A stretch of DNA of 64,000 bases, taken from positions 1,620 through 65,619 of the IMG/VR virus record IMGVR_UViG_3300029288_000012; one strand, written 5' to 3'. Positions 61,016-63,981 of the stretch are shown here, piece after piece. Position 1 is the first letter of the stretch, and the number at the start of each line of letters is the position of its first letter. The DNA is from a virus. Its lineage: Duplodnaviria; Caudoviricetes. The position numbers were made by a program, and so were the translations under genes. The notes below the pieces were generated by a model. The model was not told the DNA's origin. It worked only from the letters and a program-made list of their open reading frames with translations, and did not search any database.

Positions 61016-61588
61016 TTAGCTTGCGTTTCCTTTCGCCAACACTTCAACCGGGTCTTCGCCGGCAGCGATCGCTTCAAGTTGGTCGATAGGCAGCTTCGTC
61101 AAGTCGAGAGACATAAGACGATCGACATCAAGGCCGAGCAGTTTTCGGATATCTGCAAGAAGGTTTCGAGCCTCGGCGAGATATCGCGGGTCTCCGACCT
61201 GTTCTTCTTTCTTGACCTGCGCCTTCATCCTGCTATGCTTGCCGCCATCGGAGCCGGCTTCGCTTTTCTCGGTGATATGCGTTTCGGCGGTTTCCTTTGA
61301 TCTGTGCCAGGCGTTCATCGCTTCTTGAAGAAGCGCTTGCAAGGTAGCAAGTTGTTCTGTCTTTACGATCTGCCTGTCAGCGGCAGCTTCTTCAAGAAAG
61401 CGCTTGCGTAAGCGCGCCATTGCCTTCGTCACACCTTGTCGAGTGATACGCCAACGGGGGTTCTGACGGGTCCATTCTTCTGCTATTTCGAGGTGAGACC
61501 ATCCGTATTTGACGCGCCGATCCCAGATAAACTTTTCCCTTTCAAGTGTGATTTCACGGGGTGTTCTGTTTGGAGACTTCTTCGTCAT
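61016..61588 (-). CDS. terS: Terminase small subunit
   Basis: HTH-like N-terminus, helical middle region, directly upstream of TerL; RBS AAGGA. Confidence 0.7.
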   Translation of the reverse strand: MTKKSPNRTPREITLEREKFIWDRRVKYGWSHLEIAEEWTRQNPRWRITRQGVTKAMARLRKRFLEEAAADRQIVKTEQLATLQALLQEAMNAWHRSKETAETHITEKSEAGSDGGKHSRMKAQVKKEEQVGDPRYLAEARNLLADIRKLLGLDVDRLMSLDLTKLPIDQLEAIAAGEDPVEVLAKGNAS

Positions 61589-62948
61589 GTTTTGCGTTTC
61601 CTTTCTGAAGCCTGGCCCTCCAATCGGAGAGCCGAGCAAGCCCTTCGTTCGGGACGTAGGTTTCGAGATACTTTGTTGGAACGTTGTCCCAGGTGTATTC
61701 GCCGAATAAGCGGTCAATATCTAACACAGTTTCGAGGGTCTTCGATTTATCTGGAGCCGGCAGCCCCCAGAATTGTTTTGTTCGCAAGAGCCGCTTTACA
61801 GCATCCGTATCAGCCTCGGTTCCTCGCAAAGCAAGCGCCCAAAGCGTGACAGTAGCAAGCGATTCCGTCATTTCAGGAGCCGTAAGCGAGTTGTTTCCGA
61901 TTTCAAGCATCTTATGAGGGAATCGAGGATCGATAGACCGCCTAAATCGCCAGATATAGTTTCTCATGTTTTCATAGCGCATTGGCCAGATCGCCGAGGG
62001 CGTGTTAGGCATTGCCCTGAAGTGATTGAATGTCGATTCGATACGCAGTAGCTTTTCAGGATTATGCCGCCTGAAGGCGACCTCAATGGTATCGATAAAT
62101 TCAAGATAATCGTCGTCGGTTTCGCCTGGATAGCCACAGATATTACAAAGCTTTATGCGATAAAACAGCCGTTCGCCGGCAGCGACAATGAAGCGAGTCA
62201 TGCGTTCGTTCGTGAAGTATTTATTCACCATGAATCGCATTCGTTCTGACATGCCATCAACACCAACGATCAAATGACCGCTAACATTCCAGTCTTCAGG
62301 GTGATCTGGATCATACTCCCACATCGTTCCTTCGTCTGCACTTTCGGACGAAACGTAAGCGCCATCTCGACTTTCGTCAGCGACCATGAATTGCCAGCCC
62401 CATGAGAAGTTACAGAATAGACACTTGCGCCGGCAGCCGATTCCCTGTTCTATCCAGGGTTTGCCTTTACCCATATTCAGGGCGTGGGGGTAGAGTTGTG
62501 TAGCTTGAGCAAGTTTGTATTTCTGCGTATCTGCATTGAATGTATCTGCATAGGCTACCGATTCGCTTATGTAACGATCGCCTTTCTCGTAAGCCTGGAC
62601 AAGCGGCACGATTATATCTTCGCCACGGCCGAAGACGAACGCGTCTCCCATGAAAAGGAAGGGGCGAATATCAAGCATACCAGCGCCGCCGATAATGACC
62701 TTGTAATCGCCCTTTGGCCAGGTGATTCGTTCCCGGCCGAAGTCAAACCAGTCAGTAGCCGAAACGATACTGACAAGAATAATGTCATACTCTTTGACGG
62801 TCGCCTTTGAAGCGAAGTCTACCTGATAGCCGGCCCGTCTTAAGACGTCGGATATCATATTGATACCACGAAAGACACGCTTCTCGAAAGAATCGTTATC
62901 GTAGGATCGCCGGGTATAAGTTCCTTGAACGTAAACAGCGATTTTCAT
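61554..62948 (-). CDS. B12-binding radical SAM enzyme (class B-like)
   Basis: KVIIGG and DAFVFGRGED B12-domain motifs; GCRRKCLFC CxxxCxxC; GYPGETDDD. Confidence 0.85.
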   Translation of the reverse strand: MKIAVYVQGTYTRRSYDNDSFEKRVFRGINMISDVLRRAGYQVDFASKATVKEYDIILVSIVSATDWFDFGRERITWPKGDYKVIIGGAGMLDIRPFLFMGDAFVFGRGEDIIVPLVQAYEKGDRYISESVAYADTFNADTQKYKLAQATQLYPHALNMGKGKPWIEQGIGCRRKCLFCNFSWGWQFMVADESRDGAYVSSESADEGTMWEYDPDHPEDWNVSGHLIVGVDGMSERMRFMVNKYFTNERMTRFIVAAGERLFYRIKLCNICGYPGETDDDYLEFIDTIEVAFRRHNPEKLLRIESTFNHFRAMPNTPSAIWPMRYENMRNYIWRFRRSIDPRFPHKMLEIGNNSLTAPEMTESLATVTLWALALRGTEADTDAVKRLLRTKQFWGLPAPDKSKTLETVLDIDRLFGEYTWDNVPTKYLETYVPNEGLARLSDWRARLQKGNAKHDEEVSKQNTP

Positions 62949-63445
62949 CTATCCTCGAATTCTGCCCCACACTCAGGGCATGTTATCAGCTTCGGCGGTT
63001 TGGTATCTTTTGACGAATCCTCGGCTTCATCGATAAGCCCGTTTTCTTCAGCAATACTCGCCAGAAGCTTTTGAAGTTCAGGGTCGTCGGTCTGGACCTG
63101 TTCATAGAGTTCTGAAAGTTTCGCATCGTCGGTTGCTGCCATAGCTCCTAATGGATCAAGGGTTGTTAGAACGAGTCTTTCTTCGTCTTCGGTCAGTTCG
63201 ACATATTTCACAGGGACAAGGGTTTCCTCGCCTTGTCGAAGGGCGAGCGTCACGCGTAGGTGGCCATCAATGACACGACCGGTTAGCCGGTTGACAATTA
63301 CGTCTTGTACCCATCCGACGGTAGCAAGAACAGCCTGAAGTCCTTCCTGCTGCTGCCTCGGATGAATGCGCCAGTTATCCGGGTGGGCAAGCAAGTTGCC
63401 GGCAGTTTCAGAGCCAGTCGATACGATCCTATTTTGCCACGTCAT
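62945..63445 (-). CDS. ParB/Srx-like N-terminal domain protein with C-terminal Zn ribbon
   Basis: HPDNWRIH, VIDGHLRV and CPECG motifs. Confidence 0.85.
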   Translation of the reverse strand: MTWQNRIVSTGSETAGNLLAHPDNWRIHPRQQQEGLQAVLATVGWVQDVIVNRLTGRVIDGHLRVTLALRQGEETLVPVKYVELTEDEERLVLTTLDPLGAMAATDDAKLSELYEQVQTDDPELQKLLASIAEENGLIDEAEDSSKDTKPPKLITCPECGAEFEDR

Positions 63446-63447
63446 TG

Positions 63448-63981
63448 CTAGTACCTAAATCCGCATTTAGGACATCTGTTCTTCGGTTCGTTTTCGTCTT
63501 CATCTTCGTCTTCATCCCCTTCGCTATCTGCAAGATCGATCGCCTTCCCCTTTGCGCCAATGTCTTGACCGAAACGGATAAAGAGCGCTTCCATGTCAGG
63601 ATCGACAGCAAGGTCCTGGCATTCCCGGAGAAGTTGATCCGCTACCTGCCTTTCAACACCTGCGAGGGAAGCGGTATAGTCAAGAAGCAGCAGAGCCTTC
63701 TTGACTTCATCCGGCGTGAGGTCAACCACCTCTACGGGGATTTCAGTCAAGCCGCTATTGATCGCAAGCGAGACTCGAAGGTGACCATCGATAATAGTTC
63801 CATCCTGAGCGACGAGAACAGAACGAATCATGCCGAGGTCATTTATAGACGCCGCTACCGCCGCGCTTTGGGTAGCATTATGAAGACGAAAGTTTTGAGG
63901 GTGAGCCATAAGATCCGCGACCTTCATAATCTTATGCTCTACTATTCGATTGTTCAAGGTTATTTTAGGTTTGTTTGCCAT
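63448..63981 (-). CDS. ParB/Srx-like N-terminal domain protein with C-terminal Zn ribbon (paralog)
   Basis: HPQNFRLH, IIDGHLRV and CPKCG motifs. Confidence 0.85.
   Translation of the reverse strand: MANKPKITLNNRIVEHKIMKVADLMAHPQNFRLHNATQSAAVAASINDLGMIRSVLVAQDGTIIDGHLRVSLAINSGLTEIPVEVVDLTPDEVKKALLLLDYTASLAGVERQVADQLLRECQDLAVDPDMEALFIRFGQDIGAKGKAIDLADSEGDEDEDEDENEPKNRCPKCGFRY

Follow-up and report, generated by a model that had tools for sequence, protein, structure and literature searches.

Small ParB-like proteins activate phage enzymes that modify bases in double-stranded DNA, and the genes for these enzymes co-occur with terminases (PMC13229309). In the ParB-dependent phage thymine dioxygenase system of 5mYOX176 and ParB176, the ParB-like partner lacks a classical DNA-binding domain, is encoded next to the enzyme and often lies near terminase genes, mostly in uncultured phages (O'Toole et al., PNAS 2026, PMC13229309). 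Fusions of ParB domains to DNA methyltransferases have been described in a survey of the ParB fold (PMC12704722), and a radical S-adenosylmethionine (SAM) enzyme acts on DNA in thymidine hypermodification (PMC8989533). Here we describe a related locus in a 64,000-nucleotide stretch of DNA from a virus of the Caudoviricetes (the window, positions 1620-65619 of the 65,619-bp record IMGVR_UViG_3300029288_000012). On its minus strand, two paralogous ParB-like genes, ParB1 and ParB2, are followed by a gene for a predicted cobalamin-type radical SAM enzyme. A first-pass annotation had reported this arrangement, with DGHLRV and CPxCG motifs in the ParB proteins and CxxxCxxC in the enzyme, and all of these elements are present. 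The features concerned are as follows.

63448-63981, minus strand: ParB1, 177 amino acids (aa), a small ParB/Srx-fold protein carrying an NxR and a GHxR motif, an acidic linker and, at its C-terminus, a CPKCG knuckle
62945-63445, minus strand: ParB2, 166 aa, a paralogue of ParB1 ending in CPECG
61554-62948, minus strand: radical SAM enzyme gene, 464 aa, of an unnamed, almost virus-only family
62574-62948, minus strand: N-terminal cobalamin-type Rossmann domain, approximately residues 1-125, with S60...D66-W67, G87-G88 and G107-R-G-E110
62412-62435, minus strand: CxxxCxxC motif (C172, C176, C179) for the radical SAM [4Fe-4S] cluster
61557-61895, minus strand: family-specific C-terminal helical domain, residues 352-464, without a recognisable fold relative

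The window pair resembles 5mYOX176/ParB176 in its small ParB-like partner, in the adjacency of the two genes, in lying near terminase genes and in occurring mostly in uncultured phages, and its enzyme would, like 5mYOX176, be a post-replicative modifier of DNA bases, but the catalytic chemistry differs: 5mYOX176 is an Fe(II)/2-oxoglutarate, O2-dependent dioxygenase, whereas the window enzyme appears to be a cobalamin-type radical SAM protein, with oxygen-sensitive chemistry. ParB176 has a C-terminal dimerisation domain where the window ParB ends in a two-cysteine CPKCG knuckle (the two were compared by description only). Activity and ParB dependence have been shown for the 5mYOX system; for the window pair both are proposed. 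Phage M6 gp53 offers a likeness of another sort, being a phage radical SAM enzyme that acts post-replicatively on a base in the DNA polymer (PMC8989533); it differs in belonging to the SPL-like branch, in having neither a cobalamin domain nor a ParB partner, and in working within a multi-enzyme pathway for 5-hydroxymethyldeoxyuridine (5-hmdU). Radical SAM enzymes are not mentioned in the dioxygenase report or in the ParB survey (PMC13229309; PMC12704722), and no description of the pair was found in the literature on radical SAM enzymes with ParB and terminases or DNA modification, or on cobalamin-dependent radical SAM enzymes in phages. The locus would belong to a known kind, that of ParB-partnered phage DNA-modification modules; its new element would be the cobalamin-type radical SAM catalytic subunit.

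The ParB-enzyme pair and its exchangeable partner

Relatives of the enzyme from 80 viral loci and a few assemblies formed 48 clusters at 85% identity, and 43 cluster representatives had enough upstream DNA to assess the neighbouring gene. A full ParB gene directly abuts the 5′ side of the enzyme gene in 41 of these 43, and this adjacency persists down to 27% enzyme identity. The ParB partners share NxR, GHxR and an invariant C-terminal tail, CPKCGFxFEV, which usually ends in an ATGA overlap with the enzyme start, and the two genes are predicted to be translationally coupled in nearly every relative. Part of the tail conservation is at the nucleotide level, because the FEV codons (TTT GAG GTN) form the enzyme's ribosome-binding site, a GAGGT Shine-Dalgarno sequence within the last 10-25 nt before its ATG (e.g., L044, L057, L066). 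The remaining two representatives, L015 (5786-6004) and L019 (2296-2508), have no ParB domain at this place; they encode a protein of 72 aa that contains an acidic stretch, has CPKCGLVFEV as its tail and overlaps the enzyme start. The C-termini of these two proteins are identical and their N-termini diverged, and in both loci the pair sits between the large terminase subunit (TerL) and the portal gene. The association with ParB noted in the first-pass annotation therefore extends to the homologues, by a full ParB gene in 41 of 43 and by the tail in the other two. Its pair of ParB genes is present in the window and is not the rule, since two of the 41 representatives with a full ParB gene have two.

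What surrounds the pair is far more variable. Downstream terminases belong to at least five Pfam families, the upstream neighbours look like a random sample of phage genes, and in nine near-complete carrier phages (39-67% GC) the enzyme and ParB are the only detectable shared genes. No third conserved partner (glycosyltransferase, kinase, reductant or cobalamin gene) was found in the flanks or in whole carrier genomes. No 5-hmdU pathway genes near the pairs or common to their carriers were found in the flanks and genomes examined, and no polymerase or nucleotide-metabolism gene co-occurs in the nine near-complete carriers. Because carriers share only the pair and its flanks are random, the pair appears to be a self-contained mobile cassette whose target is something common to all carriers. 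In one of the carriers, a gene for S-adenosylmethionine synthetase lies close to the pair on its upstream side and might supply SAM for the enzyme. Elsewhere, in L128 (8368-10468), a ParB-tail protein without any enzyme partner lies approximately 190 nt upstream of a DUF4055-domain protein taken as the portal, and such a ParB-tail protein may have a role of its own.

The window ParBs are of the subtype that forms the N-terminal part of DNA methyltransferases in phages (PHROG 498; PADLOC MTase_II). A tblastn search with the ParB domain gave approximately 50% identity over the domain in more than 400 phage records, and those listed were mostly annotated as DNA methyltransferases. Split arrangements occur as well. 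In Moraxella phage Mcat8, the gene for a 166-aa ParB protein with this tail overlaps that of a C5 DNA methylase (PF00145, 3.6e-58); a second methyltransferase, a small terminase subunit gene (terS), TerL and the portal gene come next. A pattern scan for the ParB tail in viral contigs found a second group, L125 (4200-8671) together with L130, L131, L132 and L134, in which two tandem ParB-tail paralogues precede a C5 methylase (3e-39), a small open reading frame (ORF), an HNH endonuclease, TerL and, probably, by position, the portal gene. These split systems share with the radical SAM pair the CPKCG tail, the gene overlap and the place before terS or TerL, and the L125 layout reads as that of the window with a C5 methylase replacing the radical SAM enzyme. 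The catalytic modules of the fused and split systems differ in chemistry: they are classical SAM methyltransferases (N6/N4 or C5) without iron-sulfur cluster or cobalamin, and cannot methylate an unactivated carbon. On a tree of the ParB proteins, which is a quick tree only, the ParBs linked to methylases fall inside two different supported clades of those linked to the enzyme (SH-aLRT 96 and 95), a pattern suggesting that the catalytic partner has been swapped repeatedly.

The window phage itself encodes at least five DNA methyltransferases confirmed by Pfam (52345-55846, 28877-29854, 1545-2144), where the first-pass annotation had counted six. Three are tandem N6_N4-type genes in the head module, one of them a weak match, and the others are a C5 methylase and a Dam-like gene. 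The idea that the radical SAM enzyme extends 5-methylcytosine made by the phage was considered and rejected as a general requirement, PF00145 being present in two of 20 carrier records (two of 10 among those at least 90% complete).

ParB1 and ParB2 are 32% identical (E 5e-27). Both match PHROG 620, "ParB-like" (2.9e-22 and 4.2e-17, respectively), and the N-terminal part of PHROG 498, "DNA methyltransferase" (6.4e-21 for ParB1). Pfam ParB_N matches neither at E 0.01 and does match homologues of both, so the ParB assignment rests on the PHROG profiles, the homologues and the fold. The GxxR phosphate-binding motif of Box II is GHLR in ParB1 and ParB2 alike and takes the form GH(G/T/Q)R among the 45 partners compared. 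The two are sisters on the quick tree (SH-aLRT 96), which indicates a lineage-specific duplication.

The radical SAM enzyme: family, fold and predicted cofactors

The enzyme belongs to a large, divergent and largely viral family. In the protein database it has 68 relatives at 27-45% identity, none informatively named, plus one near-identical copy (97%). A profile search among 1.84 billion representatives returned 291 clusters (50% identity) at E <1e-30, and full-length members among the best 150 listed of these 291 are nearly all 400-500 aa long. Atlas clusters of the family are 91-100% viral, and no tblastn match to the enzyme was found among 50,697 deposited phage records. Species genomes gave 13 loci among 185,579, all on contigs of at most 84 kb from metagenome-assembled genomes (MAGs). 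The labels of these MAGs are mostly gut or anaerobic (Clostridia, Oscillibacter, Collinsella, Bacteroidaceae, Dissulfurispiraceae and others). Such labels would fit an oxygen-sensitive enzyme. A PADLOC search gave no defence-system match for the enzyme.

The CxxxCxxC motif (C172-x3-C176-x2-C179) is invariant among 29 aligned family members. Neither relevant Pfam model reaches its gathering cut-off, with 23.8 bits against 29.5 for Radical_SAM (PF04055) and 18.5 bits against 32.1 for B12-binding; the Pfam model does not capture so divergent a family, whose membership among radical SAM proteins rests on motif and fold. An AlphaFold model of the enzyme (predicted local distance difference test score, pLDDT, 87) has three domains. 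Its partial TIM barrel aligns to radical SAM cores over residues 169 to approximately 375 (RlmN Z 8.4, DesII Z 8.4), and the SAM-binding motifs DGMSE...R...K and GYPxET..D align to RimO and MgmA. The best match to the whole model is MgmA (Z 18.8, root-mean-square deviation 3.6 over 323 residues, 17% identity), followed by CysS (Z 15.0), AprD4 (Z 14.0), TsrM (Z 13.9), MiaB (Z 13.7), OxsB (Z 13.4) and TokK (Z 9.9). MgmA is also the best sequence-profile match in the PDB (E 8e-8), where a search with the single enzyme sequence gave a chance match only.

Residues 1-123 align to corrinoid-binding Rossmann domains (4r3u, Z 8.1, root-mean-square deviation 2.1; 1y80, Z 7.0) at approximately 20% identity. 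In class B enzymes, cobalamin is contacted by a motif in the beta3-alpha3 loop, a GG motif and a GE at helix 5 (PMC9204698). Counterparts in the window enzyme, S60...D66-W67, G87-G88 and G107-R-G-E110, are invariant or nearly so in the family; the segments align to MgmA, and their placement fits the secondary structure of the model. The domain read as B12-binding in the first-pass annotation is thus not degenerate, by fold or by cofactor motifs. Sequence and model together suggest a cobalamin-type radical SAM enzyme, one that would itself use cobalamin.

Among characterised enzymes, MgmA (QCMT; PDB 9ccb) has, like the window enzyme, three domains: a cobalamin Rossmann domain, a partial TIM barrel bearing CxxxCxxC, and one at the C-terminus. 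This last domain is unrelated to that of the window enzyme, the context of MgmA is archaeal methanogenesis and its substrate is a protein, the glutamine of methyl-coenzyme M reductase (PMC11796369). The NCBIfam MgmA/QCMT equivalog TIGR04014 scores 39.6 bits against a cut-off of 360, over the N-terminal half only, and the window enzyme is by this comparison a relative of that equivalog and not a member. By predicted structure the nearest cellular cluster is TIGR03960, cellular B12-binding radical SAM proteins (template modelling score 0.80 on the query), which is also a weak profile match; these proteins differ in being bacterial, approximately 800 aa long and fused to DUF2344, with no ParB or terminase link among the matches listed. 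A methylthiotransferase of the MiaB/RimO type was rejected as a candidate: the family has no invariant cysteine outside CxxxCxxC for an auxiliary cluster, and the C-terminal domain is all-helical, unlike the beta-barrel TRAM domain of such enzymes. Modelled alone, the C-terminal helical domain has a pLDDT of 86, and its comparison with 48,161 chains gave a best Z of 4.6 and no peptide-recognition fold.

Substrate, mechanism and alternative readings

Taken together, sequence, models and analogy favour, by a slight balance of probability, a two-part phage cassette for ParB-assisted, post-replicative DNA modification that is expressed with the packaging genes. C-methylation would be the likeliest reaction, with anaerobic thymine oxidation as the alternative. 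The first-pass annotation had left the choice between DNA and virion modification open. The DNA option gains in part, from the ParB linkage and the exchange with methylases, and the virion option loses, as carriers share only the pair and have at least five terminase families. A more specific proposal, which we advance tentatively and regard as rather doubtful, is that this is the first cobalamin-dependent radical SAM enzyme to act on DNA, a ParB-activated enzyme that C-alkylates or anaerobically oxidises a base in double-stranded DNA before packaging, yielding a new base such as 5-ethyluracil or a C-methylpurine and tying phage fitness to host cobalamin and anoxia.

Under the favoured DNA-modification account, a mechanism can be sketched. 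ParB proteins would dimerise, in the window phage probably as a ParB1-ParB2 heterodimer, and their two two-cysteine tails together may form one four-cysteine metal site. The dimer would activate the enzyme or hold it on double-stranded concatemeric phage DNA. The first-pass annotation took the ParB pair for DNA-loading or targeting subunits; this was an assumption, and the ParB partners of phage DNA-modifying enzymes studied so far have no domain for binding DNA and activate their enzymes on double-stranded DNA (PMC13229309). The reduced [4Fe-4S] cluster would cleave SAM, and the resulting 5′-deoxyadenosyl radical would abstract hydrogen from a DNA nucleotide. Chemically the easiest target might be the allylic C5-methyl group of thymine, although this is speculation. 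Methyl transfer from methyl-cobalamin to the substrate radical would then give a C-methylated base, e.g., 5-ethyldeoxyuridine. Alternatively, the final step could be a water-derived hydroxylation, which would make the enzyme an oxygen-free equivalent of the phage thymine dioxygenases, which need oxygen. Water-derived hydroxylation has been proposed for BchE, which is of the B12-type radical SAM class and takes the place of an oxygenase. Such oxidation fits the habitat, and fits less well with the lack of follow-up enzymes in the flanks and carrier genomes. Made late, shortly before packaging, the mark would protect packaged DNA against the nucleases of the host infected next.

Several observations weigh against this account. 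MgmA, the nearest relative of known structure, has a protein side chain and not DNA as the target of its methylation (PMC11796369), and the substrate of the window enzyme is not readable from MgmA because the identity is only 17%. The ParB/Srx fold also serves non-DNA functions, as in the kinase SerK and in sulfiredoxin (PMC12704722), and the L015 and L019 proteins keep the tail without the domain, so the ParB domain is not strictly needed. No protein in which ParB and enzyme are fused was found among near-length hits, longer proteins or the 150 best representatives, and no DNA-binding fold was found for the C-terminal domain among 48,161 chains (best Z 4.6). The N-terminal domain is similar to that of AprD4, one of the top fold matches. 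AprD4 is not known to use cobalamin, so the fold alone is no proof of cobalamin use. Finally, with at least five methyltransferases in the window phage, extra DNA protection is not obviously needed.

Other readings differ in the reaction or in the target. A minor possibility is that the enzyme works with ParB on DNA by a reaction other than methylation, as an oxygen-free counterpart of the thymine dioxygenases that makes 5-hydroxymethyluracil or another oxidised or rearranged base, with cobalamin serving in another way or not being used. The ParB-dependent enzymes published so far are O2- and 2-oxoglutarate-dependent thymine dioxygenases encoded near terminases (PMC13229309), the MAG contigs with genome hits are mostly labelled gut or anaerobic, and the fold relatives include AprD4 and OxsB, the latter a B12-type enzyme that does not methylate; BchE is a precedent for replacing an oxygenase. 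However, hydroxymethyl bases in phages are usually elaborated, and neither a glycosyltransferase nor a kinase nor any other enzyme for such elaboration was found to recur in the flanks of the pair or in carrier genomes, while the closest fold match is a methylase and the slot is otherwise filled by methyltransferases. That the target is instead a protein or peptide, as for MgmA, and specifically the CPKCG tail of ParB or a packaging or virion protein, seems quite unlikely. The best relative by both structure and sequence, MgmA, C-methylates a glutamine of a protein and has a large cleft for the peptide (PMC11796369), the invariant tail ends right at the enzyme start, and a tail-only 72-aa protein is kept in L015 and L019. 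Yet this tail is also found with C5 DNA methyltransferases, for which no peptide substrate is required; the near-complete carriers have no further protein in common to serve as the target, and their terminase families differ; and the C-terminal domain offers no peptide-recognition fold, while FEV conservation is in part that of a ribosome-binding site.

It is decidedly improbable, in our judgement, that the target is a free nucleotide, RNA or a host molecule, with ParB as a nucleotide-binding partner and a modified deoxynucleoside triphosphate or an anti-defence or host-shut-off metabolite as the product. The ParB/Srx fold does bind ATP, CTP or GTP and occurs in a kinase and a reductase (PMC12704722). 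Two further likenesses point the same way: MiaB and RimO, which act on tRNA and a ribosomal protein, respectively, share the architecture of the enzyme, and OxsB is among its fold matches. OxsB acts on deoxyadenosine phosphates. Against such a target, a step on the DNA polymer before packaging would fit both the fixed place of the pair beside the packaging genes and its late co-expression, the ParB subtype is linked to DNA methyltransferases, and no polymerase or nucleotide-metabolism gene co-occurs with the pair in the nine near-complete carriers. Highly improbable is the view that the ParBs are packaging factors, in pac-site recognition or as nuclease helpers of the terminase like HNH proteins, with the enzyme as an unrelated passenger. 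It would account for the constant position of the pair at terminase genes and for the ParB-tail protein without an enzyme beside the presumed portal in L128, but a passenger would not stay overlapped across 48 clusters, down to 27% identity, while all else changes, and the partner is replaced by DNA methylases and not by packaging genes.

If DNA modification by this pair is correct, phages of anaerobic habitats would possess a small cassette of two genes for a novel type of DNA mark, made through radical C-H activation with cobalamin, a chemistry not known from DNA. It would mean a new natural base and a new phage escape from restriction, and would widen the role of ParB-like activators beyond oxygen-dependent dioxygenases. 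Biotechnology could gain an enzyme for site- or context-specific C-alkylation of DNA, and phage success would be linked to how much vitamin B12 is available to communities of gut and sediment. This would concern an entire class of uncultured phages, because the family comprises approximately 290 clusters at 50% identity (E <1e-30) and none of it appears in some 50,000 deposited phage records.

Gene order and predicted transcription of the locus

The minus-strand order is ParB1, ParB2, the radical SAM gene, an ORF in the terS position, TerL and portal. The further features are as follows.

61016-61588, minus strand: putative small terminase subunit, 190 aa when translated from the ATG at 61588, named from its position and an N-terminal helix-turn-helix-like region
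59406-61013, minus strand: large terminase subunit TerL (phrog_2, 7.4e-27)
57840-59390, minus strand: portal protein (phrog_10963, 3.1e-23)
63988-63993, minus strand: predicted promoter -10 hexamer TATAAT before ParB1, in a promoter with 11 of 12 consensus matches
L002 143-138 (circular record, past the window end), minus strand: predicted promoter -35 box TTGAAA, 17-nt spacer, from sequence
L002 171-153 (circular record, past the window end), minus strand: terminator-like hairpin upstream of the ParB1 promoter

Around the circle upstream of ParB1 come an endolysin gene and two unknown genes, then the hairpin, then the promoter. Because the hairpin and a near-consensus promoter lie just upstream of ParB1, the module heads the packaging operon, as the first-pass annotation had it. 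ParB1 to the terminase genes are probably co-transcribed, lying on one strand, closely spaced or overlapping, behind this promoter. The -10 box of TTGAAA-17-TATAAT ends 6 nt ahead of the ParB1 ATG, with no Shine-Dalgarno sequence ahead of that ATG (window 63982-64000 and L002 108-171), and the ParB1 mRNA may be leaderless or nearly so. Translational coupling, also claimed at first pass, agrees with the gene junctions: a 2-nt gap separates the ParB1 TAG stop from the ParB2 ATG, and the ParB2 stop and the enzyme start share ATGA, with GAGGA immediately 5′.

The overlap of the enzyme gene with the next ORF also holds, at a smaller size. The full extent of that ORF (61016-61717) would overlap the 3′ end of the enzyme gene by 164 nt, while its ATG at 61588, behind the ribosome-binding site AAAGGAAA, gives an overlap of 35 nt and is more likely the start than a codon further upstream. 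The terS label did not fare as well. No terS profile was matched in Pfam, NCBIfam or PHROG searches, no homologue of the ORF was found at the same position in related loci, and its sole PHROG match is phrog_645, labelled "Rnase E" (E ~1e-7); the assignment is putative, its one support being the position before TerL. The record carries a 127-bp direct terminal overlap (window 63874-64000 = record 1-127), which points to a circular or circularly permuted assembly. A repeat of exactly 127 bp resembles the assembler k-mer overlap of a circular assembly, not true physical ends.

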